Below are positions 6,869-44,946 of a stretch of 64,000 nucleotides of DNA, one piece after another. The stretch covers positions 409,159 through 473,158 of the forward strand of contig OW818634.1 in NCBI GenBank assembly GCA_942492765.1, given 5' to 3'. Numbering within the stretch: position 1 is the stretch's first letter; each line of letters begins with the position of its first letter. The stretch comes from an uncultured bacterium (GTDB lineage Bacteria > Patescibacteriota > Patescibacteriia > Patescibacteriales > UBA12465). The position numbers and the translations under genes were made by a program. Under the pieces are notes generated by a model that had not been told where the DNA came from, searched no databases, and saw only the letters and a program-made list of their open reading frames with translations.

Positions 6869-7549
6869 TTATTTCTCTACCCTGAGCTTGTCTAAATCGA
6901 CTAATTCCTGGTTCTGAGAGGTTTCCGGGTTATAGGTCTTATAATAAAGCTCAATCAGGCTCTGGGTATCTAAGCGGGCGACGGCGACGCCGAGCGATTC
7001 TAGGCCGCCGGTGACGCTGTCGATGCGGCGATCAAGCATCTCCTGATAATTCTTAAAGGTTTTTTCCTTAAGCTTGATGACAGTCGCCGGCTTAAGCGCT
7101 TCGCTCAATAGGCTCATGAAACCTTTATGCTTATCAGTCAGCGGGTCATAAGGAACAATCACGTAAAAACGCTTATTCATGATCTTGCCCAAGGAGGTCA
7201 GCTCTTTGATATATTCGATATAGTCGGCGGTCTGAACTTTCAATAATTTATTCATCTGCTCCTTCTCTTTATTCTTCAAGTATTCCAGATAATTATTGAT
7301 GTCTAATTCGCGGGACTGGATGACGATCTGGAGCGTGAAGGTCAGATTATTCAAGAAGCGGACATAAGAATCAATAACCGCATTCTGTTCGTCTTCGCTC
7401 TTGAGCGCGAAATTTATACTGGAAACGAGAAGCACGGCGCGCAAAGTGCCATCCTTCATCACGACGGTGTTATCCTTAATCTCAGCAATATTCAGATATT
7501 GCTGGGTAGAAGAGCTTATTTTATTCTTAGCCAATCCTTTTTCCGGCAT
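6869..7549 (-). CDS. Hypothetical T4SS-associated protein resembling the non-ATPase N-terminal domain of VirB4-type proteins
   Basis: 226-aa ORF packed tightly between the PrgI-like and VirB4-like genes. Contains YLNIAEIKDNTVVMKDGTLRAVLLVSSINFALKSEDEQ and no Walker motifs. Confidence 0.5.
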   Translation of the reverse strand: MPEKGLAKNKISSSTQQYLNIAEIKDNTVVMKDGTLRAVLLVSSINFALKSEDEQNAVIDSYVRFLNNLTFTLQIVIQSRELDINNYLEYLKNKEKEQMNKLLKVQTADYIEYIKELTSLGKIMNKRFYVIVPYDPLTDKHKGFMSLLSEALKPATVIKLKEKTFKNYQEMLDRRIDSVTGGLESLGVAVARLDTQSLIELYYKTYNPETSQNQELVDLDKLRVEK

Positions 7550-7567
7550 AATTTAAATTTATCCTTT

Positions 7568-7987
7568 TTATTCTCCTTTATAGCGTCCTTTGGTATCGAC
7601 GACGAGCGCCAGTTCGGCCAAGCGCGACTTCTTATACATTTTCGGACCGACGGCTGGCGTCTCCGGCTTGATCTCGATATTCGGTTCTCCGACTTCGGCG
7701 GCCATCATGCGATTATTCCAAACCCTTATTCCCGGACGGCGTAAAGTCTGAAAGGCATTGAGCATGAACAGATGAAAGGGGCGGCCGTTTATCTTGACGA
7801 AGGCGAATAGGGCGGCAAAGATGAGCGTCACGATGCCGACGGTCAGGAAGAGAGTAAAATCGAACAGCTTATAGCTGATGCCGATAATGACGGCGGCGCC
7901 AAGAATAATCATGAATTGGCGCACAGTCAGAGGGCCGATAATCTTATTCTCGACATCGATGAATTGAGGAACGGTGAACTGCTGCAT
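7568..7987 (-). CDS. PrgI-family (VirB3-like) small membrane protein
   Basis: 139 aa. N-terminus is QFTVPQFIDVENKIIGPLTVRQF, followed by two TM helices. Confidence 0.6.
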   Translation of the reverse strand: MQQFTVPQFIDVENKIIGPLTVRQFMIILGAAVIIGISYKLFDFTLFLTVGIVTLIFAALFAFVKINGRPFHLFMLNAFQTLRRPGIRVWNNRMMAAEVGEPNIEIKPETPAVGPKMYKKSRLAELALVVDTKGRYKGE

Positions 7988-7992
7988 ATATC

Positions 7993-25858: not shown

Positions 25859-28800
25859 CTAATAATTCCTAGCATAAGCCCCCCAGTTATCAGTAACCTG
25901 TATCTTCAGAGTCTTCGGGCCCTTAGAAGAATAATAATGATAGAAAACATGGGGATTAGTGGCTGTCGGGTGATGATCTTCGCCGGTGATAGTCTGGACG
26001 CTGCCATCGCCCCAGTCAAGAATGATTTCCTTAAGCGGCTGCTGTTCCTTGTCGACCTGACTATTAAATTCTAGGCGATAAACGCCTTTATTAAGGATAT
26101 CAAAAGTATTGCCGGAAGCGGAAATCGTAGTCCTGGTCCCGCCGGCATAAAGCCTGATATTACTGATAGTCGGATAAATCCAGCAGAAAGAACTCGTTCC
26201 CTCTCCAATGCGCGTATCATTAGCGCATTTATTCAGAGTCGAAGTAAAATCGGAATAGAAGCGTGTATCGGGTCCATAGACATTATCATTAAAATTATAA
26301 CTTCTATAAGATGTCATGAACAAGGTCTTTAGGATATTCCTATAATCGGGAGTACTTTGTTCACTAACAATGACTGGGGATAACTGTTGATTCCAAAGCG
26401 GAATACAGGTGCCTGACCCATCACAAGAGTTAATGCCGATGGCGGTATCGCCGGGAACTAGGCTGGCGGCGGTCAAGCAATAGGCATCTTTATTTTCGCT
26501 GCAATAACCAATAGAAGTACAGCCGCTCGCATTCCCTATTTGATTACAACCATAAGGCCGGCCAGCGGAGATAGTTTCTTTATTACTATCTGAATAAGTA
26601 TTGCGCAGAGTAACCGGCGCGCTCAGAGAGCTTAGGTCATTAGGCAGGGCGGCGGCACCATAAGGAATAAAAGATCGATTCCGGCCATACCCGGAGATAG
26701 CTTTAGGCGCAGCGCTATACTTATTATTCGAGCTGTCAACGAAGAACCCGGGCGTGGTATCAGGATAAGCTGGATCGCCGTTGATTCTGGCGGCCCAAGA
26801 CTTATTCTCGCCATTCTCATTGACAACCTGGATGAACCTATTGCAAGTGAAGCGAAAAATCTTAGTCGGATCGTCTCCGGAGTTATCTAGTAGCTTTAAA
26901 TCATTTTCCGTCGTCGGCGGAGTATTATAGTCATAAACCCGGACAATCGGATCAGCTAAGACCTGATTATCTGCGGCAGTCCCGTGGCCGCTATACCGAT
27001 ACCAGCCGTCAGTTGAGACAAAGAGCATAGCACGATAGGCACTTCCGCTACTCACAGTAGAACCGTTGACCCAAGAATCGGCATTCGCCAATAGTCTGGT
27101 ATAGGTATAGCCCGTGGTCGCGGTTGACCAGTCCTCGAGATATCTATGCTGGCTCGGGCTATTAAAACTGGTGTCGTCATCTCTCAATACTTTAAGAATG
27201 AATTTCTTGCTGGCATTGTTCTTCGGAACGCACCACCAATCGCCGTTACAGTTCCAGTGGTCGCCTCTCCACCAAGAATATTCGTAATAGAATCTTTCGT
27301 AGCCCGAGGCGCAAGAGCCAGCGCTAGTCTGAAAGCCGTCGTTAGAATCTCCACTATCACAATCGCCGTTAGTATTATCATGTCCTAGATAATAAGCCTT
27401 CCGATTTTCTACTAAATCAAAATTACCGTTCAATTCCGTACAATAATTAAGAGGATAAGTGCCTTTATAGGCATAGGCAGACTGCTGAGAAATCCTAGTG
27501 GTCGAAATCTTATCGACCGGATACCAGATCAAGCAGACGCTCGGATTGAAAGAATCATGCTCTAAACAATAGCCCTCTAGGCCGTTCTTAATCACATTGC
27601 TATTCTTAGTTTCGCAAGTCAGGCTGTCTTCAGTCGGATAGAGACGGCATTCGCGCGGCGCGTATTGGTTATTGCCGATTTCTAAGACCGGCTCGATACT
27701 GAGATTATCAAAATAAACAGCGTTCTTATCCTGAGGATCGCTCGTATCCGAGCTCAGATAAATCTTGATCTTATTCTTCCCTTCTCCGTAGCCGATATCG
27801 AACTTGGCAATCTTCGTTTCCCAGCCGGTAGGCGCGGCCGCGTAAAATATCATTGGCGCGTTGGTCACCGGATCATTCATGACCGTGCCATTTACGTCAG
27901 TAATCATCACTTTCGTGCGCAAGGTCGAGCCCTTGGTATTAATCATGTAGCTCAAATAATAGGTATTGGTTTTATTTGCTTCAGGCGAGGCTAATTCAGC
28001 AAAGCCAGTCGGCCCATCGCCTAAAGTAGAGACTTGATATGGAGCGACGACTTTCAGATAACCCTTGCCTTGGGCCGGATAATCAGTCGGGGCATTCTCC
28101 GGTTCTTTCACTACGGCGTAAGCGTCGTTAGGGCAGGCCGCGGGACCGGAAAAATTAATATTACCATGGCAGCTCAGCGAGGGGCTATCCTCAAAATCAG
28201 CATAGAAACCGGAGCTGAACCCAACCTCCTTGATCTGGCTGAAATGATATTTATTGAGCAAAGAATAGCCGGTCGCGTTCTTATCGTTATTAGCATCGAA
28301 GCTGCGGACCGCCGTCGGCATAGTGATAAAATTGGCGCATTCATTCTTATCATCCAGGCGGTTGCATTCGGCGACAGCATAACAAGTCTTCTTCTTCGTG
28401 GCCGGATCCTCAATATAAGTCACGCAGTCTAGCCATTTAGAGCAGACGCGGTCTGGGCGGACTTTGATAAGCTGATTAGAGGTGCATGACCCCTGAACGC
28501 TAGGCGAACAGGCGGTCGGCGTAGCGCCGGATACTGTCTTATAAGCATCCCAGCCTTTTTCTAAGCTGACTAGACCGGAAGCTCCGGCAACATTGCGTTC
28601 ATTGAAGAGAACGCAGCCGTCGTCGAAATTCACGAGCCCATTGCAGCTCGTCTTATCAATATTAGCTTTCAGCTGATAATCGACAACCAGTTCCCTGACT
28701 TCTATGGTCTTGCCCGTCGCGCCGCCGCTGACCAAGGCCGTGGAATTATTGATAGAATTAAATATTATCGGCTGATTGGCATTACTGGAAATAGTGAAGC

Positions 28801-31800
28801 TGTTAGTAGTCGTCCCGAAATTATTATTAACCAGCAGCGGCCTAGCGGGAGTTTCAAACGACAGAGCGACATTACCGGAAGCGCCGGTGTCGTATTTAAC
28901 CGTGAAGCTATATAATTTATTCGGCTCAAGCCGGATAATCTGCTGCGTAGCGGTCGGCTGCTGGCCATTAAAATTTTCACCGTCATAACCCCAGCCTTCT
29001 TTAACTCCTTCTATCGTCTGATAGCCGGAATTAAAGACCAGATTGACTGAGAATTGGCTGACGGGATCGATATATTCCGTGCAGCCCGATTCGTTGGCGC
29101 TACAGAGACCGGCGGCCGTATCCGGAATCCAGACCTGGTTGCCAGCCCCGCCTAAGCCGATAGTCTTATCATATGAAGTAGAGCAAGGATAATCATTATT
29201 ATCAATAATACATTTGTTTGCGCCGCAATCGTTATCGCTCGTACAGATAGCGCTGCCTTTTTCGACTCCGGCAATTGAGCCGTCCTTACTGGCATCACAG
29301 CGCTTGACCGCTATCTTATACCACGACTTGCCAAATATCTTAGGATCAGCGCTGGCTCTATATGAGCAGGCATTCGCTCCCGGATTCTTAAAGTAACTCA
29401 CAGCTCCGTCATCGCTATTACTCCATTCCTCGCAACCGACGTTGGGTTTCTGGCATAGAGACTGGGCATAAGTATCCGGATTGTTCTGCCTATAGGCGTC
29501 TACCCAGGAAGTAATGATAGCTCCGCCTTGGCCTTGACCTAAGCGGCTGCAGCCTTTGCTAGCCGCAGTGCATAATTTATTCGGATCATAGACCGCATAG
29601 AGGGCGCTGTCGGCATTTACTTTGACGCAGTCGACCTCGGTCGGATCGCAGGCATTATTGTTATTGGTGTCATTCCAGATACCCGGACCATAATCGGAAT
29701 AATTCTTAGTGTCTACCATCTGCTCGCAGCCAACAGCCGATTCCGAGCAGAGCTTAGAAAATTGGCGCAGGTTATGCATTAAGCCGCCGCGATCGGCATA
29801 TTGAGCGCAACCGAGATTATAATCGGCTCCCTGATATTGATCGAAGATATCATAGTAGCAGACGTTAGGAATCTGGCTAGAACCTTTGACTAGATAATAG
29901 CGGTCAGTAATCTCAGAGAGGACGAAGTCGTCGAATAAGAAATTAGCGTTAGCGCTGATGATCAGGCGTTCATTCGGACCGACGGCATGGTCGAGATTCT
30001 CCAGGTTCGCTTGATACAGATTCCATTCATTGCCGCCCTTGACGACTAAAGTGCTAGAAGCGTTGAAATATGACTTAGCTCCGGTATCGCGGTTCAAGAA
30101 ATATATTTTCAGGTTTACATTAGTCACGGCGCGCGCTAAGAATTTCACGGCATAGGCGCTATTCTGATTGACGGAATTACCGACAGCGAGCTGAGCGGCG
30201 ACATTATCGCTCGCGAGCAGCCTTTCTATCAAGCGAGTCTTAGCTATCGGCGCGCCGGCATCATTGCCGACCGGCTGACAGCCGCTCGCGCTATCTAAAT
30301 ATTGCAAAGAGTGCCCATCCTTACTGTTAGCTACGGTAGAAATACTAAGGCCGTTGGTACAATTAGAAGTCCAATAAGCAGCTGCGCCACTTTCGAAATC
30401 ATAAGACGTCACGAGACGGACATTATTGCCGCTATTGCCATTGTATTCGCGGCAGCCGTTCTCGTTAGCGGAACAAGTCTGGCCTTCGCCTGGAATCGCC
30501 TGATAGACGCAGCCGTTATTATTAGTATCCCAAGCGCCGCCGTTCGGACAGATATTACAGGTACTGTCTCCCGCGTTCCAGTGCTTATCAGAACCGGTGC
30601 ATTGCGCGGCCGTCATGTTATTGACGATATTCTTTTCGCTCAGCCTATAGGCATGGCAATCTTCAGAACAGGTTATAGTCCGAGAAGCAAGATGATAAGA
30701 GACTTGACCGGCAGCATTATAAAATTCGCGACAATCCGCATTATAGCCGGCATTAGTGATCGGCAGATTATAGATAGCGGCGTTGCATAAAGCGCTGTCA
30801 TTCGCGGTCACTTCCGGCAAACCGCCTTGGCTCTTGAGAGAGTAGGACTTAAGCTGATAGCCGGCGTCAGTTCCCTCCCAAGAATAGAAGGTGGCGCAGG
30901 TAGCGGCTGAAGGCTTAACGCATTGTTTTAGGGAAGTATAATATTCTTTCTGTTCGCCGCCAGCGGCCAACGCATCTAGATTAGTAAACTCATTGCAGCC
31001 AGCTGCGGCCGCGCTACAAGCCATTGCCTTTTCCGGAATGAGATTCTCGGAAACGGCCGGATTGAAGCGGCTAGCTTTGGCGACATAAACATCATAGCCT
31101 AAACATTGATCAGAACAATAATCGCTGCTCACGACCTTGGCCGGAACCGCGAAATTATCAGCAAGCGAAGAGTATAATTCACAGCCGGCTTCTTCCTTAT
31201 TGCATTTGCGGGCGAAATTGGAACAGACAGTCGGAGCGCCGCTCTTCAATTCATAATTCTTAGTAGCGCTGACCGCGTCGACATAGCATGATTTTTCTAA
31301 GTAAGCCGGCAATAATTTTTCATACACAGTGAAGCGTCCGTAATTGCTATAACCGGTATCCCAGCTGCTGATTTCGAACTTTAGATTCTTAAAATAGAAG
31401 GTAGCTTGACCATTGGCGCTATAACCGCTGACGAAGAAATCGGCGTTATTATAAGCGCTATCGGCCAGACGCGTAATGCTGACATGCTGCCAGACGTTCT
31501 TAGTGGTTATGGTTTTGGCAAAACCCTCAGAAACCGCTCCTAGACTGAGGCTAGCGCTATCGCCGCTAGCCAAATAGAGGTCAGCGCTGAGCGTATAGGA
31601 TTGTCCAGAAATAGTCTGAAAATTAGCCGGCAAAAGAGAGGCCGGAGGATTAGAATAGACGCCGCCGCCGGTTGCGCTAGTTTCCAGGCGCATAGCCTTG
31701 CCGCTAGAATCTCCCGGGGCGATAGATGAATCGACAATGGTCGCGCGAGCATTATTCAGAGGCCAATCATTGAGAGCCGGCTGAGTCGCCGTATTACCTA

Positions 31801-34012
31801 TTTCATCGTTGCCAAAATTAGAATTCATGACTAAATTACTACCCCAGGTCGGCTTTAGGCGCATCAGCTCGGTGCAGCCGTCGTCGGACTTCTCGCAAAC
31901 CTTGGCATTCTTATTAAGATAAATGCTCTGTCCGCCATCCCAAGAGACCGTATCAGTGGAACTATTATAAGCGCCGTTGAATGAATATTGGCGGCAGCCG
32001 GAATTTTCCGAAGTACAGCTGTCATAATCCAAGGTATTCTCCAGATAAGCGACCGAGGCGCCGCTTTCAGTATTAATAAAATCTTGGCAGGTATTATTTA
32101 TCGGCTGACAAGAGTCAGCGCCGAATACCCAGGTCCGTCTTTCCTCGTCGCAATAGCCGTAAGCATCGCAGCTGCCATCGCTCTTTTCCTTGATACAGGT
32201 CTGGCTATCAGCACAATAAGAATCGGCGCGGGCCACACTTAATTCGCTCGGAGTGGCCGGAGCGTCTCCGATAGCCTCAGTTCCCGGCATGACAGTCTTG
32301 CTCAATATCTGAGCGCTAAAACCCTCTTTGCTACAGGAATTCATCGGCGCTTTTAAGACCCAATTTGGATCAACCAAGCCTTGGCACCAGCCTTGGTCAT
32401 TGACATTGAAGTCTTTGCTGAAACTAGCATATTGATCATTGGGATCAAAGCAGGACATAAAGTCGCTCAGAGTGGCCTTCTTCTGGTTAGCATCGTTAGC
32501 ATAGGCCCTAGAAACTGCCTCTTCCCAGCCGACCGGCAAAATACGATATTTACGAAGTATAGAAATATTGCGCAGGCCATAAGACCCGGCGCGGCTATCT
32601 CTCGTTAACTGCCAGTCGCCATGCAGATAACCTTCTTTAACCGCTTCCGCAACAGTTTTCTTCTCGGTTATCCCTTGCATGAACTGATCGTCAATAACGC
32701 AGTCAGTCGGACCAGGATTCTTAGAATCAATGCAGATAGATAATTCGGATAAGATATCATAATCAGCTCGGACGCCGAAATTAGTCTGCAAGAGTTTGGT
32801 AGTGATTTCTTTCAGGGCGGTAGCGCCGCCATTAGCGTTCGGGTCGCTCTCATAATTACTAGAACCCGTGCTGGACTTATTACCCTTTTCACTCTTCTCT
32901 CCCAAAGTCTGAAGTAGATTATTAAAAGCTGAAAAATATAATTGATTTAAAAAGACATTGGCAGCATCGACTAAAATATCACCAGTCGTCTTTCCTAAAG
33001 CCTGCTGCCTGGCAGTCCTAGCTGATTCAGCGGCTGCCTGAGCTTCTCCGGGAACTCCCTTCAAAGTGCCGGCGATAGTGCGAACGTCAGTCCAGCCCTT
33101 ATTGGCAATGAAGCTGCTGCCGGCAGTCAGGTTCTTATTATAAACCTGGTTCGACAGATCCGTCTGTGCGAGCACGAAAATACCGACATCGTTAGTGCGC
33201 GGGTCAAAAATATTCACGAATTCATCCAAATAATTAGCGTCTCTGAGCGAGGCGAGCTTCTTCTCGACGCTATCGCCCCAGTCCTTAATCATTCTTGAAG
33301 CCGTACAATTAGGCGCGGCCGGACGAGTCTGCTCTACTAAACCGAGGCCAATCTTAATCTTGGCCTCTAAAGACGACGGGCTGCAGACATTGAAGGATGG
33401 GGTCACTTGATCAGCGGTTGTCTGGGTCTGAGCCGCGCATTTAGTGGCCGCTCGATCACAATCAGCCGTGCAAGTTGTTCTATTTTCAGCATAATTATTG
33501 TCAGTGCCGCCTTCGTTAGTCAAGAAACTCACGCAGAACTCACGGCATTTCTTAAGCTGATTAGCGCAAGTCTCATCAACGGTGGTATTTAAATTATTAA
33601 CGAAACTTTCGATAAATTGGCCAGCCGCTTCATCGCTAATCTGCTCCAGATAAGCGCCAAGGCTCTTGGTGATGAAAAGCGGTTTCTGTCCCTTTCCGCC
33701 GGAACCGATATAATTGGCTGTGTCATAAGCAATCTTGTTCAGGGCTGAACTCAGGACCCTCTGAAATGCCAATGATCCAGCTTTCTGTATCAATTTAGTC
33801 GTCCTCTTCCAAAAAGAATCCTTTACAGCCGCTGTTGCCTGCGGCACAGACGCCTGTTCTATAGTAGTGACTGGGCCGCCAGTAACGTAAAATTGCGCCG
33901 AAACATCTTTTATAGTAAAGACCGCCAAAACAGAAAAAACCAGCAAGAAAAGGACCAATTTCTTACCGGTCTTAAATTCGGTCTCCTGGTTAAAATTTAG
34001 GAAAGACTTCAT
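25859..34012 (-). CDS. Giant (2717 aa) secreted cysteine-rich surface protein with jelly-roll CBM-like modules and a C-terminal PKD-like domain; putative adhesin
   Basis: Uninterrupted 8.1-kb ORF with an N-terminal signal/anchor (LVLFLLVFSVLAVFTIKDVSAQ) and very many Cys residues. Several segments fit the N.xF..W...F.NL..E pattern. The C-terminus has LDWGDGS...HVFYHYY...LKIQVTDNWG. Confidence 0.85.
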   Translation of the reverse strand: MKSFLNFNQETEFKTGKKLVLFLLVFSVLAVFTIKDVSAQFYVTGGPVTTIEQASVPQATAAVKDSFWKRTTKLIQKAGSLAFQRVLSSALNKIAYDTANYIGSGGKGQKPLFITKSLGAYLEQISDEAAGQFIESFVNNLNTTVDETCANQLKKCREFCVSFLTNEGGTDNNYAENRTTCTADCDRAATKCAAQTQTTADQVTPSFNVCSPSSLEAKIKIGLGLVEQTRPAAPNCTASRMIKDWGDSVEKKLASLRDANYLDEFVNIFDPRTNDVGIFVLAQTDLSNQVYNKNLTAGSSFIANKGWTDVRTIAGTLKGVPGEAQAAAESARTARQQALGKTTGDILVDAANVFLNQLYFSAFNNLLQTLGEKSEKGNKSSTGSSNYESDPNANGGATALKEITTKLLQTNFGVRADYDILSELSICIDSKNPGPTDCVIDDQFMQGITEKKTVAEAVKEGYLHGDWQLTRDSRAGSYGLRNISILRKYRILPVGWEEAVSRAYANDANQKKATLSDFMSCFDPNDQYASFSKDFNVNDQGWCQGLVDPNWVLKAPMNSCSKEGFSAQILSKTVMPGTEAIGDAPATPSELSVARADSYCADSQTCIKEKSDGSCDAYGYCDEERRTWVFGADSCQPINNTCQDFINTESGASVAYLENTLDYDSCTSENSGCRQYSFNGAYNSSTDTVSWDGGQSIYLNKNAKVCEKSDDGCTELMRLKPTWGSNLVMNSNFGNDEIGNTATQPALNDWPLNNARATIVDSSIAPGDSSGKAMRLETSATGGGVYSNPPASLLPANFQTISGQSYTLSADLYLASGDSASLSLGAVSEGFAKTITTKNVWQHVSITRLADSAYNNADFFVSGYSANGQATFYFKNLKFEISSWDTGYSNYGRFTVYEKLLPAYLEKSCYVDAVSATKNYELKSGAPTVCSNFARKCNKEEAGCELYSSLADNFAVPAKVVSSDYCSDQCLGYDVYVAKASRFNPAVSENLIPEKAMACSAAAAGCNEFTNLDALAAGGEQKEYYTSLKQCVKPSAATCATFYSWEGTDAGYQLKSYSLKSQGGLPEVTANDSALCNAAIYNLPITNAGYNADCREFYNAAGQVSYHLASRTITCSEDCHAYRLSEKNIVNNMTAAQCTGSDKHWNAGDSTCNICPNGGAWDTNNNGCVYQAIPGEGQTCSANENGCREYNGNSGNNVRLVTSYDFESGAAAYWTSNCTNGLSISTVANSKDGHSLQYLDSASGCQPVGNDAGAPIAKTRLIERLLASDNVAAQLAVGNSVNQNSAYAVKFLARAVTNVNLKIYFLNRDTGAKSYFNASSTLVVKGGNEWNLYQANLENLDHAVGPNERLIISANANFLFDDFVLSEITDRYYLVKGSSQIPNVCYYDIFDQYQGADYNLGCAQYADRGGLMHNLRQFSKLCSESAVGCEQMVDTKNYSDYGPGIWNDTNNNNACDPTEVDCVKVNADSALYAVYDPNKLCTAASKGCSRLGQGQGGAIITSWVDAYRQNNPDTYAQSLCQKPNVGCEEWSNSDDGAVSYFKNPGANACSYRASADPKIFGKSWYKIAVKRCDASKDGSIAGVEKGSAICTSDNDCGANKCIIDNNDYPCSTSYDKTIGLGGAGNQVWIPDTAAGLCSANESGCTEYIDPVSQFSVNLVFNSGYQTIEGVKEGWGYDGENFNGQQPTATQQIIRLEPNKLYSFTVKYDTGASGNVALSFETPARPLLVNNNFGTTTNSFTISSNANQPIIFNSINNSTALVSGGATGKTIEVRELVVDYQLKANIDKTSCNGLVNFDDGCVLFNERNVAGASGLVSLEKGWDAYKTVSGATPTACSPSVQGSCTSNQLIKVRPDRVCSKWLDCVTYIEDPATKKKTCYAVAECNRLDDKNECANFITMPTAVRSFDANNDKNATGYSLLNKYHFSQIKEVGFSSGFYADFEDSPSLSCHGNINFSGPAACPNDAYAVVKEPENAPTDYPAQGKGYLKVVAPYQVSTLGDGPTGFAELASPEANKTNTYYLSYMINTKGSTLRTKVMITDVNGTVMNDPVTNAPMIFYAAAPTGWETKIAKFDIGYGEGKNKIKIYLSSDTSDPQDKNAVYFDNLSIEPVLEIGNNQYAPRECRLYPTEDSLTCETKNSNVIKNGLEGYCLEHDSFNPSVCLIWYPVDKISTTRISQQSAYAYKGTYPLNYCTELNGNFDLVENRKAYYLGHDNTNGDCDSGDSNDGFQTSAGSCASGYERFYYEYSWWRGDHWNCNGDWWCVPKNNASKKFILKVLRDDDTSFNSPSQHRYLEDWSTATTGYTYTRLLANADSWVNGSTVSSGSAYRAMLFVSTDGWYRYSGHGTAADNQVLADPIVRVYDYNTPPTTENDLKLLDNSGDDPTKIFRFTCNRFIQVVNENGENKSWAARINGDPAYPDTTPGFFVDSSNNKYSAAPKAISGYGRNRSFIPYGAAALPNDLSSLSAPVTLRNTYSDSNKETISAGRPYGCNQIGNASGCTSIGYCSENKDAYCLTAASLVPGDTAIGINSCDGSGTCIPLWNQQLSPVIVSEQSTPDYRNILKTLFMTSYRSYNFNDNVYGPDTRFYSDFTSTLNKCANDTRIGEGTSSFCWIYPTISNIRLYAGGTRTTISASGNTFDILNKGVYRLEFNSQVDKEQQPLKEIILDWGDGSVQTITGEDHHPTATNPHVFYHYYSSKGPKTLKIQVTDNWGAYARNY

Positions 34013-34038: not shown

Positions 34039-34728
34039 TTATTGATTCAAGTTCGCGCTAGTACTCTGGGCATCAAGCGTCTCCTGATAACTCTTCATGA
34101 GATCTTCATCGCTGATCTGATCGAGGTCTGCCTTGGAGGCGCCGCCAGAAATCAGGAATTGGCGCAGGGTTGCGGCATCTCCTTGACCGTTTAAGACATT
34201 CTGAAGAATATTTTCATCAACACTGGTCGTATCAAGATCAGCGGAAGAACCGGTAGTATCAGAGACATCGGACGCCGTATTAGCGTCCCCAGAAATGTTC
34301 GAAGCGCTGGTCGTGGCGATCGCGCTCGTATCGACAGAAGCGTGACAATCCTTGCCTTTCGGACAAACCGGATCAGTCCCGTTATCTATTTCTTTCTTAT
34401 CGGACAAGCCGTCGCTATCGGTATCTTCAAGATACGGCGAAGTCTTATACGTATAGATTTCGGCATAATCAGATAAGCCATCCTTATCAGTATCTGCACT
34501 CTTCAAGAGATTATTATAATCTTCTTCGGAAGTATCGGTCGCCATCGAGGTCTGATAATCGAACGGACCCTTGATATGCGCTCCCATCTGCCAGATCCAG
34601 AAGACAATAATAAAAACCGCGAAAGCGGCTAAAATAATGACCGCATTTCTTTGCGGCTTAGGCAATCCTTTTGAGCTTGGATAAATCTCGTTCCCTCCCC
34701 AATTTTTTTGTATCGGCATAATAATCAA
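34039..34728 (-). CDS. Membrane-anchored protein with thrombospondin type-3-like Ca-binding repeats
   Basis: One TM helix, then DTDKDGLSDYAE and DTDSDGLSDKKEIDNGTDP (DxDxDG repeats), then a Ser/Asp/Thr-rich tail. Confidence 0.65.
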   Translation of the reverse strand: MIIMPIQKNWGGNEIYPSSKGLPKPQRNAVIILAAFAVFIIVFWIWQMGAHIKGPFDYQTSMATDTSEEDYNNLLKSADTDKDGLSDYAEIYTYKTSPYLEDTDSDGLSDKKEIDNGTDPVCPKGKDCHASVDTSAIATTSASNISGDANTASDVSDTTGSSADLDTTSVDENILQNVLNGQGDAATLRQFLISGGASKADLDQISDEDLMKSYQETLDAQSTSANLNQ

Positions 34729-38914: not shown

Positions 38915-39664
38915 ATGGGTTTAGAAGAGAGAGTGAAATACGCAGCCATGAAGGCGCGCCACAAAAAAATCCTGCTCCCTTGGTACAAGAGATGGTGGGG
39001 GGTGGTAGTTTTAGCCTTAGCCGGATTACTGCTCATAGTCCTGACGATTTCCAGCCTTTACGTCGTCAATAAAGCGCAATCCATCATCGCTGAACAGAAC
39101 CAGGGAGTGACCCAGCAGGATTATGAGAAATATATCCAGGCTATCAAGGGCGATGGCAGTAATTTTTATATCGGTACGACGACGCCGCAGGCGACTATCG
39201 TAGAATTCGGCGATTTTGCCTGCCCCTACTCGAAAGAATCCTATCTGGTTGTCAAGCAGATCTTGGCTGATTATCCCGACAAGATCAAGATAGTCTGGAG
39301 AGATTATCTGCGCAACGAAGATTCCATTGATCTCGCGGTCGCGGCTCGCTGCGCCGGCGCTCAAGGAAAATTTTGGGAAATGCATGATAAGCTTTTCGAG
39401 GACCAGGATAACCTGACTACCGCCGATGAGGCCCGCCTCAATCGTTTGGTGGCGCTAGCCGTCAGCCTCGGGATGAATGATACGGAATTCGCCACCTGCC
39501 TAGCTAACCGCGACAACCTGACTAAGATCCAGAAAGATTACGAGGAAGGCAATGAGCTCGCTATCATCGGCACGCCGACCTGGTTCGTCAATAATTACCC
39601 GATTTCCGGATCTCTGACTCTTGATAAATTCAAAGAGCTCTTGAGCGGAATCATTAAAAAATAA
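38915..39664 (+). CDS. Membrane-anchored DsbA-like thioredoxin-fold protein with a CPYS (CxxS) active site
   Basis: ATG at 38915 avoids overlap with xth. There is a TM helix, then FGDFACPYSKE, AARCAGAQGKFWEMHD and GTPTWFVN, which are typical of DsbA-like Thioredoxin_4 proteins. Confidence 0.75.
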   Translation: MGLEERVKYAAMKARHKKILLPWYKRWWGVVVLALAGLLLIVLTISSLYVVNKAQSIIAEQNQGVTQQDYEKYIQAIKGDGSNFYIGTTTPQATIVEFGDFACPYSKESYLVVKQILADYPDKIKIVWRDYLRNEDSIDLAVAARCAGAQGKFWEMHDKLFEDQDNLTTADEARLNRLVALAVSLGMNDTEFATCLANRDNLTKIQKDYEEGNELAIIGTPTWFVNNYPISGSLTLDKFKELLSGIIKK

Positions 39665-39684
39665 TCAAAGAATCATCAAATAAT

Positions 39685-40230
39685 ATGGAACAGGTCCGCA
39701 TACATGGGCGCGGCGGGCAAGGCGTCGTCACTGCCGCCGAACTCATCGCTATCGCTGCTTTCTACGAAGGCAAGGAGGCACAGGCTTTCCCTAATTTCGG
39801 CGTGGAGCGTACGGGCGCGCCTATCCAATCTTACGCGCGCATCTCTGACTCACGCATCGTGACCCGCGAACAGATATCTGAACCGACCGTGCTGATAATC
39901 CAAGACGCGACCTTGCTAGACACGGTCGATGTCTTCTCTGGCAGCACGCCGGATACTGTCGTCATCATCAATTCCAACGAGAATAAATGGCCCGAACTCA
40001 ATAAAAGATTCAAGCATTTGTATTTCACGCCGGCTACGGAGATAGCCCTGAGAATCTTCGGAAAAAATATCGTCAACACGGTCATCCTCGGCGCTTTTGC
40101 CAAACACACGAAATTAGTCAGCCTTGATTCCTTAAAGAAAGCAATCGCGGAAAAGTTTTCTGATAAAGACAGCGCCTTGATCGACAAGAATATCCGGGCG
40201 GTTACCGAGGATTACGAGAGCGCTGAATAA
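39685..40230 (+). CDS. porG: Pyruvate:ferredoxin oxidoreductase, gamma subunit
   Basis: Contains IHGRGGQGVVTAAELIA. 181 aa, first gene of the por cluster. Confidence 0.85.
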   Translation: MEQVRIHGRGGQGVVTAAELIAIAAFYEGKEAQAFPNFGVERTGAPIQSYARISDSRIVTREQISEPTVLIIQDATLLDTVDVFSGSTPDTVVIINSNENKWPELNKRFKHLYFTPATEIALRIFGKNIVNTVILGAFAKHTKLVSLDSLKKAIAEKFSDKDSALIDKNIRAVTEDYESAE

Positions 40231-40237
40231 TAAAAAT

Positions 40238-40516
40238 ATGAAGAACAAAAAAATAAATCTTATCACTGAGCCGAATACTACTTTGACTAATAAGACCGGG
40301 CCTTGGCGCACGGAGAAACCGATAACCGACCTCGCGACTTGCATCGGCTGCTCCTTATGCGCGAAGATATGTCCGGAAGGCTGCATCGAAATGGAAAAGA
40401 ACGCCGCTTATGGCGATAAGCTGAAGCCGGAAACGGATTATGATTATTGCAAAGGCTGCGGCCTCTGCGCCCATGAATGCCCGGTCAAGGCGATTAGAAT
40501 GGTTAAAGATTACTAA
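40238..40516 (+). CDS. porD: Pyruvate:ferredoxin oxidoreductase, delta subunit (2x[4Fe-4S] ferredoxin)
   Basis: Contains CIGCSLCAKICP and CKGCGLCAHECP. Confidence 0.85.
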   Translation: MKNKKINLITEPNTTLTNKTGPWRTEKPITDLATCIGCSLCAKICPEGCIEMEKNAAYGDKLKPETDYDYCKGCGLCAHECPVKAIRMVKDY

Positions 40517-40517
40517 T

Positions 40518-41714
40518 ATGATGAACCAAGAACATAAACAGATACTGGAAGGGTCGCACGCCATCGCGCTCACGATCAAGAATATCGGTCCGGCGGTCGT
40601 ATCCGCTTATCCGATCACGCCGCAGACGCATATTGTCGAAGATCTCGCGAAGATAAAAGCCGACGGCCAAGCCGATTATGAATATGTCCGAGCGGAAAGC
40701 GAATTCGCGGCTGCTTCGATCATCTTAGGGGCGAGCGCCGCCGGTTCCCGCGTCTATAGCGCCACCAGTTCCCAGGGCCTGTTGCTCATGGCCGAAGTCG
40801 TCTACAACATCTCGGGCATGCGCTTGCCGATAGTTATGACTTGCGCCAATCGCGCTGTCTCCGCTCCGATAAATATCTGGAACGATCATAGCGACGTGAT
40901 GAGCGTCCGCGATGCCGGCTGGATCCAATTATTCGCCGCCAATCATCAGGAAGCGGTTAATGCCCATATCCTCGCCTATAAGCTGGCCGAGAATCTTAAG
41001 CTGCCGGTCATGGTTAACGTCGATGGCTTCATCCTGACTCATTCTTATGAATCTGTGATCATCCCTGAACCAGAAAAGATAAAACAATTCCTGCCAGCCT
41101 ATCAGCCGGAAAACGGGACTTATCTCGACCCTAAGAATCCAGTCACTCTCGGCGCCTTCTTCACTCCGGCTGATTATATGGAAACCCGCGAAGCCCTGCA
41201 TGAAGATTTATTAGCTAGCCTGAAAACGATCAAGCAAGAATACAAATTATTCCAGAGCATCTTTAAAGATGAGATTAAATTAGCAGAAGTGTCTGACAAA
41301 AAAGATATTTTTGACGATGGACTAGTAGAATACTACGGTCCGGCTAAGTCGGAGACCATCCTAGTTGCGCTCGGATCTCTCAACGGTACCATTCTCGAGA
41401 CTATCAAGGACATGAAGAGTGTCGGACTCTTGAAAATAAAAGTCTATCGCCCCTTCCCGGCCGAAACGATCAATAAGATCATTATTCGCGCCAAGAATGT
41501 CGCGGTTATCGAGAAAGCGATCAATTTCGGCCAAGCCGGCCCGCTCTATTCCGATATCAAAGCCGGATTGAGCGGCACAGAAGCCAAGAATTTGAATATT
41601 ACGAATTACGTCGTCGGCCTCGGCGGCCGTGATGTTACCAAAAAAATGATCCAGAAGATAATCAAGAAGGCTTCGCGCCGCGATCAGGCAGTAGAATTCA
41701 TCGGCCATAACTAA
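40518..41714 (+). CDS. porA: Pyruvate:ferredoxin oxidoreductase, alpha subunit
   Basis: Start taken at ATG 40518; the track start at 40440 overlaps porD. Contains GSHAIALTI...AYPITPQT. Confidence 0.9.
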   Translation: MMNQEHKQILEGSHAIALTIKNIGPAVVSAYPITPQTHIVEDLAKIKADGQADYEYVRAESEFAAASIILGASAAGSRVYSATSSQGLLLMAEVVYNISGMRLPIVMTCANRAVSAPINIWNDHSDVMSVRDAGWIQLFAANHQEAVNAHILAYKLAENLKLPVMVNVDGFILTHSYESVIIPEPEKIKQFLPAYQPENGTYLDPKNPVTLGAFFTPADYMETREALHEDLLASLKTIKQEYKLFQSIFKDEIKLAEVSDKKDIFDDGLVEYYGPAKSETILVALGSLNGTILETIKDMKSVGLLKIKVYRPFPAETINKIIIRAKNVAVIEKAINFGQAGPLYSDIKAGLSGTEAKNLNITNYVVGLGGRDVTKKMIQKIIKKASRRDQAVEFIGHN

Positions 41715-41724
41715 TAATTTTCAT

Positions 41725-42702
41725 ATGAAGATCAAAAGATCAAAAATATTGCAGGCTCTTAAGATATCTTTTTTTTCTGCCCTCTGCCTGCAACTGGCGA
41801 TGACTTTCGCCTTGGCGGCTTGGCCGGCAGGAGCCTCGGCCCAGACCGAAACGAAGTCCTTGCAATTTGAACCGCAGATACAGATTCCTAATTCAGCCTT
41901 CGACTCGGCTGCGATTAAGGTCTCGACTTACGACCCCAATACCGGAGAATTGCATAGTGACTTGCTCGCTAGATATATCCAGACTTTTTATAATTACGGA
42001 ATGGCCATCGTCGGAATCCTGGCGGCCATAGTATTGATGGGGGGCGGCGTCTTATGGCTCACTTCCGGCGGAGATTCCGGCAAAGTCGGCCAAGCTAAAG
42101 AACTCATCATCGGCAGCATTGTCGGCACTGGCATCCTTTTCAGCTCTTGGATAATACTTAATACCGTTAACCCGGAACTGCTTAATTTCAAGACGATTAA
42201 AGTCATGGGCATCGCGCCGGTAAGCTATGATGGCACGGACGGAATATTAGATAATGCCGATAGCATTCCAGCTGACGCGGAAATAAAATTTCTCTGCTTG
42301 CGCCCCGGCGATACTTGCGAGAATACTAATCCGCCTAGTATCAATATTAACGTCAGTCTCTGCTATGGAGAACTGAAAATCAGCCCGATAGAATGTACTG
42401 ATGCGAACTATCCGACGAAATGGTGCTGCGCGAAGAGCGATTCAAGCATCAACACGGCCGATGCTTATTGCCAGGGCAAGACTACCGGCACGGCCTGCAA
42501 GCTCAATGAAACCGCTTTGATGGGCTCTGGGTACTGTGAAAATAATAAATGCGTCGGCTGCAAGAAATTCGAAGAAGCTTGCTCCGGAGCATTCAATGAT
42601 TACGAATGCGTCGGGTATGATCAATATTCATGCGGCGTTCCGAATAACGGCGACTGCAATTGCAATATATTGCTCTCTAACTGCACCTGTAAAAAATATT
42701 AA
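41725..42702 (+). CDS. Secreted cysteine-rich protein with a VirB2/TrbC-like (T4SS pilin-type) two-helix membrane hairpin
   Basis: Has a signal peptide, then the hairpin YNYGMAIVGILAAIVLMGGGVLWLTSGGDSGKVGQAKELIIGSIVGTGILFSSWIILNTVNPEL. The C-terminal ~130 aa contain more than 20 Cys. Confidence 0.7.
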   Translation: MKIKRSKILQALKISFFSALCLQLAMTFALAAWPAGASAQTETKSLQFEPQIQIPNSAFDSAAIKVSTYDPNTGELHSDLLARYIQTFYNYGMAIVGILAAIVLMGGGVLWLTSGGDSGKVGQAKELIIGSIVGTGILFSSWIILNTVNPELLNFKTIKVMGIAPVSYDGTDGILDNADSIPADAEIKFLCLRPGDTCENTNPPSININVSLCYGELKISPIECTDANYPTKWCCAKSDSSINTADAYCQGKTTGTACKLNETALMGSGYCENNKCVGCKKFEEACSGAFNDYECVGYDQYSCGVPNNGDCNCNILLSNCTCKKY

Positions 42703-42706
42703 TCCT

Positions 42707-43573
42707 ATGAAAAATAAAAAAATCCTCTCTCCTGGACATAACGCCTGCGCCGGCTGCGGCCAATTATCAGCAGCTCAATCGGTGATGAGAGGATTGAACG
42801 AAAATGTCATCATCGCTAACGCGACCGGCTGCCTGGAGGTGACGACGACTGCCTATCCGCAAAGCTCTTGGGGCTTACCGTGGATACATTCCCTTTTCGA
42901 GAATGCCGCAGCGGTAGCTTCGGGAATTTCTGCCTCCTTGAGACAGAAAGGCGATACCAAGACGAAAGTAGTAGTTCAAGCCGGAGACGGCGGGACCTTC
43001 GATATCGGTATCGGTCTGGTCAGCGGCATGTGGGAACGCGGCGAGAATATCTTATATATCTGCTATGATACGGAAGCCTATTCTAATACTGGCTACCAAG
43101 CTTCCGGCAGTACTCCTTACGGCGCTAATACAACGACGACTCCGAGCGGACTTGCTTCTATCGGCTCGGCGCAGCGCAAGAAAGACATGATCGGCATCGC
43201 TCTAGCGCACGGCTTGAAGTATGTCGCGCAAACGACTGCCGGCTTTCCTGATGATATCACTAACAAGGTAAAAAAGGCTCTGACTGTCGAAGGCCCGAGT
43301 TATATCCAGATCCTCTGCCCTTGCATACCTTATTGGAAAATAAATAACGATATGGCGGTAACTATGGGAAAACTGGCCGCCCAGACGGCTTTATATCCGC
43401 TCCTAGAATACGTCGACGGACGCTTAGTCTCTTCCAGCATCAAAGAAGGCTTCCAAGCTAAACCAGCCGCAGAATACCTGAAAGGACAAGGACGCTTCAA
43501 GCATCTTAAAGATGAAGATATCACCTTGATTGAAGAGATCGGGCGAGACAATAGCGCTAAATATAAAATATGA
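42707..43573 (+). CDS. porB: Pyruvate:ferredoxin oxidoreductase, beta subunit (TPP-binding)
   Basis: Start taken at ATG 42707; the track start at 42536 overlaps the upstream gene. Contains GHNACAGCG and the TPP motif GDGGTFDIG. Confidence 0.9.
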   Translation: MKNKKILSPGHNACAGCGQLSAAQSVMRGLNENVIIANATGCLEVTTTAYPQSSWGLPWIHSLFENAAAVASGISASLRQKGDTKTKVVVQAGDGGTFDIGIGLVSGMWERGENILYICYDTEAYSNTGYQASGSTPYGANTTTTPSGLASIGSAQRKKDMIGIALAHGLKYVAQTTAGFPDDITNKVKKALTVEGPSYIQILCPCIPYWKINNDMAVTMGKLAAQTALYPLLEYVDGRLVSSSIKEGFQAKPAAEYLKGQGRFKHLKDEDITLIEEIGRDNSAKYKI

Positions 43574-44946
43574 AAAAAGGATTCTTGATAACCGGTCTTC
43601 TCGGCATAATCCTGACGTCCTTTTTGCCGTTAACGGCTCACGCTGCGGGAACTTGCACCTGGCGCATGAAGGTAAAGAGCATCGGCACGGCGGATAATCC
43701 GATTGGAGCGACTACTGGCGGCTGTCTGAATGGAGAAATAAAGGACTCCGAAACGAGTTGTGACGCCGCCACTAATCCTGGACCTAAAACTTATATAGAC
43801 AGCACCGGCACTCCGGAGTGCTGCTGCTCCGGCCAGAATCCTACTCAGGATAATTGTTATTGGCAAAAAGACATCGACCGCCCGCTCGTCGGTCCGGTCC
43901 GCAATTTCATCTGCGGCGCTGGTTACGAGATACAATATGTCGGAACGGACCCGCTCGCTCTGAATAATAAATGCCGCGCAATTACTAAGCCGACCGACTC
44001 TAGTTTCGATTATGCCTGTTGCTGTGCGGTTACTCAGACCCCGACGATCTCTGACACCACGGCTCCTAAGTTCACCATGCCAGAATTACAAATAAAGTTG
44101 CCGACCCTCAAACTGACCGAACCGGAATGCACCCTCAATAACGACGGTTCATATCATTGCGAGATTCCCTGGCTCGGACAATATATCGTCGCGGTCTATA
44201 ATTACGGCTTGAGCGTCGCCGGTATCTTAGCAGCAATAATCCTGATGGCTGGCGGCGTCTTATGGCTCATTTCCGGCGGCGACGCCGGCAAAGTCGGCCA
44301 AGCGAAAGAGCTTATCATGGGCAGCATAGTCGGCCTCGTCATCTTAGCCGGATCTTATATAATACTGACGCAGATAAATCCTGATTTGGTAAAATTCAAG
44401 GCTATCAGCATCGGCACGATCAAGGGCAAACAGCTAGCTTTGGCCGGCGCTCGCTACAGCTCTAAAGCGGAAGACTATAAGAATGCTCCTTGCGCGACTG
44501 AAGCGGAATTAGAAAAAGGCATAGATTTCTATGCGACCGGATATTATAAGCCTATTTGGGAAGATACGGATAATTTTCGCTGCGTCATCGCGATGCAATG
44601 CAGCTGTCCTCTGGGTATCGATACTACTAAGAATTGCGATCAGCTCTACGGCCAGACTTTTCCGGGCTATCATCCTTGCAAGGCCTTTACTCAAGATACT
44701 CTTTATTGCAATATGACGGCTACTGGCGGCGCGCCGCAAGATGGCGACATTGCCGGACCTAATAATTGCCGAGCGGAATTGCCTTACGGCACTCAAGTCT
44801 GTTTCCGCGGCCAAACTTATACGATCAGAGACACTGGCGGAGGCATCATGGGCAAGAGAATCGATGTCTGGAGCGGCGATAACTTGGATAAAGCCATGAG
44901 TGTTACCGGAGTCGGCACCCTGACCAAAGGCGCATGTAAACAATAG
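43570..44946 (+). CDS. Secreted Cys-rich protein with a VirB2/TrbC-like pilin hairpin and a C-terminal 3D (MltA/RlpA-type, peptidoglycan-lytic-like) domain
   Basis: The start overlaps the porB stop (ATGA). The hairpin YNYGLSVAGILAAIILMAGGVLWLISGGDAGKVGQAKELIMGSIVGLVILAGSYIILTQINPDL is paralogous to the one in 41725..42702. The C-terminus has GQTYTIRDTGGGIMGKRIDVWSGD. Confidence 0.7.
   Translation: MKKGFLITGLLGIILTSFLPLTAHAAGTCTWRMKVKSIGTADNPIGATTGGCLNGEIKDSETSCDAATNPGPKTYIDSTGTPECCCSGQNPTQDNCYWQKDIDRPLVGPVRNFICGAGYEIQYVGTDPLALNNKCRAITKPTDSSFDYACCCAVTQTPTISDTTAPKFTMPELQIKLPTLKLTEPECTLNNDGSYHCEIPWLGQYIVAVYNYGLSVAGILAAIILMAGGVLWLISGGDAGKVGQAKELIMGSIVGLVILAGSYIILTQINPDLVKFKAISIGTIKGKQLALAGARYSSKAEDYKNAPCATEAELEKGIDFYATGYYKPIWEDTDNFRCVIAMQCSCPLGIDTTKNCDQLYGQTFPGYHPCKAFTQDTLYCNMTATGGAPQDGDIAGPNNCRAELPYGTQVCFRGQTYTIRDTGGGIMGKRIDVWSGDNLDKAMSVTGVGTLTKGACKQ

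Follow-up and report, generated by a model that had tools for sequence, protein, structure and literature searches.

A large part of bacterial diversity belongs to the Patescibacteria, which live on other microbes, attached to them. To our knowledge, neither the role of their type IV secretion systems (T4SSs) nor the way in which they breach the host envelope is known to anyone. The proteins of the family PF18895 (T4SS_pilin) are treated as the VirB2-like pilins of these systems, and a pilin array is essential in one cultivated species (PMC12102498; PMC10633639; PMC12857230); the T4SS and its VirB2-like pilins are needed for epibiotic growth (PMC10633639; PMC12102498). The main survey of Patescibacteria counts all PF18895 matches as pilins and notes that VirB1, the peptidoglycan hydrolase of canonical T4SSs, is seemingly missing from most genomes (PMC12102498). 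In the lytic transglycosylases MltA and YuiC the catalytic acid is D308 and D162, respectively, MltA D297 and YuiC D151 bind the sugar's N-acetyl group, and MltA T99/Y101 and YuiC T91/Y93 orient and assist the catalytic Asp (PMC4499186). Elements of both groups meet in one gene of an uncultured member of the Patescibacteria (GTDB lineage Patescibacteriota; Patescibacteriia; Patescibacteriales; UBA12465). The DNA analysed, referred to below as the window, comprises 64,000 nucleotides (assembly GCA_942492765.1, contig OW818634.1, positions 409,159 to 473,158), and the open reading frame (ORF) in question, at 43570..44946 on the forward strand, encodes a protein of 458 amino acids (aa).

The product of the gene is a predicted surface protein whose pilin-like membrane hairpin bears an MltA/YuiC-type 3D domain, i.e., a double-psi beta-barrel. 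The ORF is real and conserved, since 148 relatives were found in the database, from 93% identity downwards, all of them in metagenome-assembled genomes of Patescibacteria/Falkowbacteria, and the features described below stand well above chance because they are near-invariant across the family (45-sequence alignment). Public databases list proteins of this type under the names 'pilin', 'hypothetical protein' and '3D domain-containing protein'. The same carrier bears other wall-cleaving enzymes in other genomes, and we conclude that the protein represents the '3D allele' within a polymorphic family of hairpin-borne peptidoglycan hydrolases. Each of its components is known by itself, from the pilins of PF18895, the 3D lytic transglycosylases and the T4SS hydrolases anchored in the membrane. 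In the open-access literature no description was found of pilin–hydrolase fusions, of payload polymorphism, or of this locus in the operon for pyruvate:ferredoxin oxidoreductase (por), and the searched papers on PF18895 pilins (PMC10633639, PMC12102498) do not mention enzyme fusions.

The C-Terminal 3D Domain

The C-terminal domain modelled alone by AlphaFold2 reached a pLDDT of 93.8 and a pTM of 0.86. The top Foldseek matches in the PDB, for the full-length as well as the domain model, were MltA of E. coli and A. baumannii, a Caulobacter transglycosylase, LtgG of Burkholderia, the RlpA-like PA4485 and YuiC of B. subtilis (entries 2pic for MltA, E 8e-5 with probability 1.0, 3czb, 6qk4 for LtgG, 7esj, and 4wjt for YuiC). 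Twenty-two viral models matched at E<=1e-3 (best 1.7e-7), the named ones being a '3D domain-containing protein', a 'lytic transglycosylase' or RlpA-like. The Pfam 3D model (PF06725) gave the target by itself 14.5 bits (E 0.041), under the cut-off of 23.8, and was found in 19 of the 45 orthologs at E<=0.01 (best 2.2e-6); four relatives carry a precomputed PF06725 assignment. The 3D domain had already been called in the initial annotation, made from the sequence alone; Pfam is weak on this point for the target itself, and the call is borne out by the fold, by the orthologs and by the agreement of motifs with E. coli MltA. Sequence similarity to MltA and YuiC is too low for a direct match among PDB sequences, where a profile of the whole family (A1) had no match at E<=10, and an NCBIfam scan gave nothing useful for the target.

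Two motifs carry the comparison with the known enzymes (Table 1). At the place where E. coli MltA has FTGYYTP the target has ATGYYKP, and T323/Y325 correspond to MltA T99/Y101 and YuiC T91/Y93, a correspondence of motifs and not of residues superposed one by one in the structures. Further on, RD421TGGGIMGKRID432VW aligns with LD297VGGAIKGQHFD308IY of E. coli MltA; D432 thus takes the position of MltA D308 (D328 in the precursor) and YuiC D162, and D421 that of MltA D297 and YuiC D151, with the canonical spacing of 11 residues between the two. In an hhalign comparison of the C-terminal family profile with E. coli MltA only the 23-residue catalytic motif was aligned (probability 36%, E 3.7e-4), and this alignment was used solely for mapping residues, alongside the true E. 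coli MltA sequence. D421, D432, T323 and Y325 are all invariant in the 45 sequences, which extend to about 42% identity.

The initial annotation had counted on three catalytic Asp residues in the 3D domain. The second (D421) and the third (D432) are indeed invariant, whereas the first is replaced by Pro397, and only one of the three is catalytic in the known enzymes (MltA D308; PMC4499186). At the site of the first Asp, MltA has VASD(281)RSIIPPGT and the target has IAGPNNCRAELPYGT. Pro occupies this position in at least 90% of the family, and Asp is kept in a single member, P0064 (IAAD), in which the spacing to the next Asp is 22 residues, as in YuiC. A second departure from the known enzymes is an insert in the barrel, about 65 residues long and containing six Cys, which occupies the place of the whole inserted domain of MltA. 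Because of this insert the overlap with known folds is partial: Foldseek alignments covered 90-120 of 176 residues, with TM-scores of 0.3-0.45.

The replacement of the first Asp, found in nearly the whole family, could also point to a barrel that binds and does not cut, an expansin/RlpA- or cerato-platanin-type glycan-binding module which would make the protein an adhesin to peptidoglycan or to another polysaccharide. The fold searches did match expansins and RlpA-like proteins, and the Cys-rich head of the protein, like its paralog encoded by the neighbouring gene, resembles binding modules. Such a non-catalytic binder is nevertheless very improbable, because the catalytic residues D432, D421, T323 and Y325 are invariant; in addition, the other payloads found in place of the 3D domain belong to bona fide hydrolase families. 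As the first Asp is replaced and the activity is read from sequence and fold, the domain is here called a predicted lytic transglycosylase, very probably active and representing a new, disulfide-stapled '2D' subtype.

The Pilin-Type Hairpin

Hydropathy peaks at residues 3-24, ~205-239 and ~247-271 match the layout of PF18895 proteins, i.e., a signal peptide and two helices. In the AlphaFold2 model the hairpin helices span residues 201-234 and 239-269 (pLDDT ~84), so that modelling agrees with the initial annotation on the hairpin as well as on the C-terminal domain. The second helix (TM2) ends in the invariant N-P of 'INPxL'. The PF18895 model gives 20.1 bits for the full target (E 6.8e-4) and 25.0 bits for the excised hairpin (2.1e-5), slightly below the curated threshold of 26.6 bits, and the membership of the target therefore rests on homology at the family level: the model matches 44 of the 45 orthologs, 59 of 61 more distant relatives, 111 of 123 unbiased representatives and all 19 excised hairpins. 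At that level, judging from these sequence matches, the assignment is not in doubt, and the pilin call of the initial annotation can be upheld. The same note had pointed to a hairpin shared with the 41725..42702 protein (nt ~44167-44400 and ~41962-42192, respectively), and this, too, was found: the two proteins are 49% identical over 129 aa (BLASTP, E 8e-34), the hairpin DNA is 69% identical, and the paralog scores 37 bits with PF18895. About 60 nt around the end of the first helix (TM1) and the loop (~44250..44310 and ~42042..42102) are near-identical in the two genes, which could reflect gene conversion or strong constraint.

In relatives with unrelated tails the hairpin and the stalk that precedes it are 50-73% identical. 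Conservation of the hairpin, including its predicted cytoplasmic loop, is far above what an anchor needs, and therefore suggests a specific interaction, most plausibly with a T4SS that handles VirB2-like proteins. The kinship with the classical VirB2/TrbC proteins is thin, as far as sequence comparison goes: only one of the 19 hairpin segments, and not that of the target, matches the classical TrbC/VirB2 model PF04956 (6.4e-4). A hairpin profile (A5) retrieved from the PDB sequences only FXYD transmembrane noise and no solved pilin, and no solved pilin was among the top 50 Foldseek matches of the full-length model.

PF18895 membership and the VirB2-like topology could mean a genuine VirB2 pilin to which a stand-in for VirB1 has been fused; it would polymerise into a T4SS filament whose subunits digest their way through the wall of the producing cell. 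No VirB1 is recognisable in most of the Patescibacteria genomes that have VirB2-like genes (PMC12102498), a gap that a fused hydrolase would fill, and proteins exist in which three to four tandem hairpins precede a lysozyme-like domain (P0149, P0161). This alternative ranks as possible, at a low probability. At 458 aa the target exceeds the size of a stand-alone pilin, and its head of ~140 aa and the ~185 aa after the hairpin, borne on the ends of each subunit, would be hard to pack in a helical filament of the VirB2/TraA type. Solved pilins are matched neither by structure nor by sequence, the gene lies outside the T4SS cluster, and the payload on the same carrier may be a DD-peptidase, an amidase or an NlpC/P60 enzyme, none of which is a glycan-cutter.

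P0161 (618 aa), P0149 (461 aa) and P0123 (678 aa) contain two to four tandem PF18895 hairpins followed by a lysozyme/SLT-like domain; such covalently joined 'pilins' bear on the question of side-by-side hairpin assembly. Another protein, P0239 (1674 aa), listed by phmmer with '13 hairpin stretches', proved to be an unrelated repetitive Ig-like protein and was discarded.

Exchange of the Enzyme on a Common Chassis

Relatives that carry other enzymes lose their homology to the target sharply at residue ~286-289, as judged from the BLASTP end-points of 11 relatives with a different C-terminal domain. The first search included 61 relatives whose similarity to the target is confined to the head, stalk and hairpin, and their payloads were VanY (11), Peptidase_M15 (8), Amidase_2 (5), SLT_3 (5), M15_4 (4), C39_2 (3) and NlpC/P60 (3). 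A filter-free phmmer search with the hairpin alone yielded 17,043 cluster representatives, 3,721 of them at E<=1e-10, and the best 150 hairpin relatives were nearly all 250-680 aa long. The 123 representatives scanned carried VanY and NlpC/P60 (15 each), M15 (9), C39_2 (6), SLT and 3D (5 each), M15_4, Amidase_2, SLT_3 and Amidase_5 (4 each), and M23 (2).

The exchange takes place at a fixed locus. In other genomes the position held by the target, between porB and rnhA, is occupied by a hairpin gene with VanY (L009 and L010), Amidase_2 (L012) or C39_2 (L013), and in L011 by an array of three genes (M15_4, VanY, 3D). A scan of species-representative genomes yielded 77 loci, from which the 52 hairpin genes located directly after porB, in 52 species genomes, were classified according to their tails: VanY/M15 in 17, 3D in 13, NlpC/P60 in 8, SLT_3 and C39_2 in one each, and unclassified in 12. 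The class of enzyme in this slot (slot 2) thus differs among genomes that are otherwise collinear, whereas the hairpin gene located after porA (slot 1) never carries a recognised enzyme. By domain assignment, at least six types of peptidoglycan hydrolase are borne on the same head-and-hairpin chassis in the same chromosomal slot of other species. Many of the contigs bearing the locus (L014-L090) are titled 'uncultured Gammaproteobacteria bacterium' (MAG TPA_asm), and one 'Bacillota bacterium'; these titles look like taxonomic mislabels.

The fusion of a hairpin and a 3D domain in one polypeptide, suggested by the initial annotation, is real, because matches to both the 3D domain and the pilin model were obtained and acidic residues of the 3D domain are retained. 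Of the accompanying idea that the fusion serves to push a filament through the wall, the fusion itself stands, and two parts have to be amended: the gene does not belong to the T4SS locus, with virB4 located 37 kb away, and a dedicated VirB1 surrogate is disfavoured. With at least six hydrolase types in one slot, an exchangeable payload fits better than a surrogate that drills a channel for its own filament.

The Cysteine-Rich Head, the Stalk and the Topology

The signal peptide of the initial annotation was recovered at residues 1-25. The Cys-rich domain that follows was described there as about 170 aa long with CC/CCC clusters; the CCC clusters are present, at 84-86 and 150-152, and the length is smaller, about 130-140 aa (residues 26 to ~155), with 12 Cys in all. 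A hidden Markov model (HMM) built from 145 single-module homologs matches this head twice, which indicates two tandem copies of a 6-Cys module of ~60 aa. The duplication rests on the profile test, the direct BLAST comparison of the two modules being not significant (E 0.043). The family alignment shows conservation of at least 90% for C29, W31 and C52 in module 1, and in module 2 CC150-151 is invariant. AlphaFold2 performs poorly over residues 61-126 (pLDDT 35-45). The number of head modules varies among relatives. Between the head and the hairpin lies a stalk, modelled with a beta-hairpin at 186-199, which from its conservation in the alignments is part of the common chassis.

The mature protein contains 24 Cys: 12 in the head, two in the stalk, none in the hairpin and 10 in the C-terminal domain. 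The even number in each extracytoplasmic segment, the absence of Cys from the hairpin, and the DsbA-like gene at the head of the operon argue for an extracytoplasmic location of the globular parts. With a cleaved signal peptide, the sole consistent arrangement would have the head outside, the loop inside and the enzyme outside. A holin/endolysin-like reading was dropped, as the cleaved signal peptide gives an N-out/C-out topology and the chassis is that of a chromosomal, widely conserved Patescibacteria family.

The por Operon and Its Surroundings

The target is translationally coupled to porB in the pyruvate:ferredoxin oxidoreductase operon, its ATG overlapping the porB stop codon (ATGA). The order of genes is dsbA-porG-porD-porA-[hairpin gene 41725..42702]-porB-[target], followed by the convergent rnhA, recJ, lepA and murJ; within the operon the gaps are of 4-10 nt or the genes overlap. 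The porB product is the TPP-binding beta subunit of the oxidoreductase (Pfam TPP_enzyme_C, 4.8e-20). Eleven distinct contigs of other genomes contain the same row of genes (loci L002-L013), the identity of the target orthologs falling to as little as 42%, and the location in the por operon with a DsbA-like gene at its head was seen in all 12 genomes inspected. A DsbA gene in this position fits two heavily disulfide-bonded products. The interleaving of two Cys-rich hairpin genes with four por subunit genes, which places secreted wall proteins beside a core fermentation enzyme, is a conserved regularity that merits explanation.

The slot-1 paralog follows porA in nearly all of the surveyed genomes. 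Its tail (residues ~165-325) has no Pfam match and no recognisable enzyme domain; 40 of 46 slot-1 tails belong to one family, with 12-24 Cys each and always an even number, and this tail may be a binding module. The possibility that the slot-1 protein is a cognate immunity protein or a partner of the slot-2 enzyme was rejected, because its tail family does not co-vary with the class of the slot-2 enzyme.

The T4SS cluster of the window lies on the opposite strand. Its virB4-like gene matches the TraG P-loop (3.3e-28), AAA_10 and TraC_F_IV models, and the PrgI gene is recognised at 6.6e-9; the three further ORFs have no Pfam match, and that at 7993..9375 has an Ala/Pro-rich middle part. No hairpin ORF was found near virB4 in the window, and no coupling protein or relaxase was seen beside the cluster. 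This monoderm-type system could be the machine that handles the hairpin, as a non-adjacent candidate.

Table 1. Features of the hairpin-borne 3D protein and of its surroundings. Residues are those of the encoded protein; coordinates are those of the window.
Feature	Residues	Coordinates	Strand	Basis and remarks
Signal peptide, MKKGFLITGLLGIILTSFLPLTAHA followed by A	1-25	43570..43644	+	cleavage motif AHA/A; hydropathy peak 3-24; model helix 4-17
Head module 1, 6-Cys 'CxW...C...C...CCC' (C29, C52, C64, C84-86)		43645..43833	+	profile match residues 24-87, i-E 2.3e-10
Head module 2, second 6-Cys copy (C96, C115, C135, C150-152)		43843..44028	+	profile match residues 92-153, i-E 1.7e-6
Stalk 'PKFxxPELQIxIP...C...C.IPWLGxYI', C187/C197 pair	166-204	44065..44181	+	conserved in alignments A1, A3 and A4; aligns with paralog
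PF18895 T4SS_pilin-type hairpin	TM1 ~205-234; loop SGGDAGKVGQAKE 235-247 (predicted cytoplasmic); TM2 ~248-271	44182..44385	+	Pfam, AlphaFold2, hydropathy
Linker	273-304	44386..44481	+	homology to relatives with other enzymes stops at ~286-289
MltA/YuiC-type 3D domain, 10 Cys	~305-458	44482..44943	+	AlphaFold2, Foldseek, Pfam
ATGYYKP motif	322-328	44533..44553	+	T323, G324, Y325, K327 invariant; E. coli MltA FTGYYTP at matching place
Cys-rich insert in barrel (C338, C344, C346, C356, C370, C380)	~328-392	44551..44745	+	conserved Cys columns; unmatched by Foldseek
IAGP, place of first '3D' Asp (MltA D261/YuiC D129)	394-397	44749..44760	+	A395 invariant; G396, P397 at least 90% conserved
3D motif GQTYTIRDTGGGIMGKRIDVWSGD	414-437	44809..44880	+	D421, G423, G428, R430, D432 invariant
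Operon: dsbA-like thioredoxin 38915..39664; porG 39685..40230; porD 40238..40516; porA ~40518..41714; porB 42707..43573		38915..43573	+	ORFs, Pfam, syntenic labels
Slot-1 paralog: signal peptide, PF18895 hairpin, Cys-rich tail	hairpin 79-147	41725..42702	+	PF18895 3.4e-9, 37.1 bits, above cut-off
T4SS cluster: virB4-like ATPase 4964..6862; PrgI/VirB3-like 7568..7987; three ORFs 4325..4942, 6869..7549, 7993..9375		4325..9375	-	Pfam

The window as a whole is an ordinary Patescibacteria chromosome, with rpoBC, leuS, lepA, recJ, murJ and an acetyl-CoA synthetase gene. It also contains, on the minus strand, an ORF of 2716 aa without a Pfam match (25859..34012), next to which a bacterial TSP3-repeat protein of 228 aa is encoded (34039..34728, also minus strand). 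A corresponding pair (2821 aa and 227 aa) occupies the same place in L002, and the giant ORF probably encodes a huge surface protein. In the segment 9426..16251, on the minus strand, a gene with the ATP-binding PPDK_N domain is followed by three paralogs (631, 528 and 503 aa) ending in a PEP-utilizers mobile domain, which resemble a split and triplicated pyruvate-phosphate-dikinase-like system.

Proposed Role

The protein would be exported by Sec and its signal peptide removed, and the helices of the PF18895 hairpin would hold it in the membrane, with the SGGDAxK...AKE loop in the cytoplasm and the head and the enzyme facing outward. The trimmed MltA/YuiC-type enzyme would cut glycan strands, with D432 acting as acid/base and the substrate positioned by D421, T323 and Y325. 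The conserved chassis consists of the signal peptide, head, stalk and hairpin, and the part after residue ~287 is the exchangeable payload: a lytic transglycosylase, a DD-peptidase, an amidase, or an NlpC/P60, SLT or C39-like enzyme. The hairpin would probably be a handle for the T4SS machinery or for a pilin-like assembly that places or presents the enzyme at the surface or at a contact site, where the payload would probably open peptidoglycan locally, in the wall of a host or partner slightly rather than in its own. The reading of the protein as a disulfide-rich surface enzyme of a Falkowbacteria-like member of the Patescibacteria, with the hairpin as its T4SS handle and a payload that opens peptidoglycan locally, is given an even chance.

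Besides the lost first Asp, the partial fold overlap and the distance from classical and solved pilins, all described above, several facts weigh against this reading. The target's own Pfam scores lie under the curated cut-offs for both the hairpin and the 3D domain. Between TM2 and the enzyme lies a short linker of ~30 residues; if the protein stays in the membrane, the wall of the producing cell is all that it could reach. Downstream of the target no immunity-like gene is present, the convergent rnhA being directly next in all loci inspected. Finally, virB4 is 37 kb away and the operon has the look of a housekeeping one, which, together with the missing immunity gene, fits an ordinary autolysin equally well.

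The hairpin of such a housekeeping autolysin would be a two-pass anchor, and the enzyme would remodel the cell's own peptidoglycan for growth, division or the insertion of envelope machines, while the variety in the slot would come from the shuffling of universal paralogs by recombination in the hairpin DNA. The stable chromosomal context, in a central-metabolism operon near murJ, the short tether and the missing immunity gene all agree with it. Sets of paralogs from which to shuffle exist, several hairpin-enzyme genes standing side by side in L011, L006, L022 and L040, and the ~60-nt tract around the loop shared by the two hairpin genes of the window is compatible with gene conversion. Moreover, Gram-positive T4SS hydrolases such as PrgK and TraG are anchored in the membrane and work on the wall of their own producer (reviewed in PMC12102498). 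On the other hand, the hairpin, the stalk and the cytoplasmic loop are conserved far past the needs of an anchor, the class of enzyme varies at one slot in collinear genomes, which is unusual for housekeeping wall enzymes, and the copy number of the N-terminal head varies too. The autolysin is regarded as somewhat unlikely and yet as a serious rival. In the replacement of one enzyme class by another between collinear genomes, the slot looks more like a polymorphic effector locus than like a housekeeping autolysin, hence the slight lean towards an interface with a host or partner.

A more far-reaching version of the T4SS-handle reading, advanced only tentatively and with a probability well short of even, would make the PF18895 hairpin and the Cys-knot head a carrier recognised by the T4SS, whose machinery would extract it from the membrane and display or deliver it. 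The family would then be an unrecognised class of polymorphic pilin-borne wall-degrading effectors used by ultrasmall epibionts to get through host walls, with the type of enzyme swapped to match the chemistry of the host wall. If true, it would also explain the apparent lack of VirB1 in most Patescibacteria. If many 'pilins' are hydrolase carriers whose enzyme is swapped between species at one locus, censuses based on PF18895 over-count pilins and under-count wall hydrolases, which may account for the reported absence of VirB1, and the family supplies a concrete set of candidates for host-wall attack or for the opening of the wall at contact sites. In that case the junction of chassis and payload near residue 287 would also lend itself to the display of enzymes on the cell surface.

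Comparison with Known Systems

With the MltA/YuiC (Sps) lytic transglycosylases of PF06725 the target shares the double-psi beta-barrel, the TGYYxP motif and the DxGGxIxGxxxDxxxG motif with its 11-residue Asp spacing, and, as in YuiC, the architecture of MltA is pared down to a single barrel. It differs from both in the Pro that replaces the first Asp, in the six-Cys insert of ~65 residues and in the 10 Cys of the domain. The mode of attachment is also different: MltA is anchored through a lipobox and YuiC is freely secreted, whereas the target is anchored by the pilin-like hairpin.

The VirB2-like PF18895 pilins of Patescibacteria (Wang et al. 2023, PMC10633639; Quinonero-Coronel et al. 2025, PMC12102498) belong to the same Pfam family and the same phylum, and have the same arrangement of a signal peptide, two helices and a short polar loop. 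They occur as several divergent paralogs per genome, at times in arrays, as do the members of the target family. The described pilins are often encoded beside virB4, unlike the target with its place in the por operon.

Peptidoglycan hydrolases of the VirB1 type and of Gram-positive T4SSs (PrgK of pCF10, TraG of pIP501, CD419/TrsG) are comparable in being membrane-tethered, often multi-domain proteins of monoderm systems that open the wall locally. They differ in combining SLT and CHAP domains with a simple N-terminal anchor, in being encoded within the T4SS operon, and in not being polymorphic at a fixed locus. In this last respect the target family is closer to the polymorphic toxins (CdiA-CT, Rhs/WapA, MafB), which likewise have a conserved N-terminal region for delivery or presentation, a sharp junction, unrelated C-terminal enzymes at orthologous loci, and occasional tandem arrays. 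The payloads of those toxins are nucleases or deaminases, whereas in the target family all are cell-wall enzymes; moreover, the target has no adjacent immunity gene, its chassis is a small pilin-like hairpin, and its locus lies in a metabolic operon.

A further comparison is provided by Bdellovibrio bacteriovorus, which secretes an MltA-like lytic transglycosylase used in prey invasion (PMC10127604). This enzyme is soluble and non-polymorphic, comes from a diderm predator and has no pilin-like carrier; as an enzyme of the same type that a host-dependent bacterium directs at the wall of another cell, it lends the host-wall reading of the hairpin-borne 3D protein a functional precedent.

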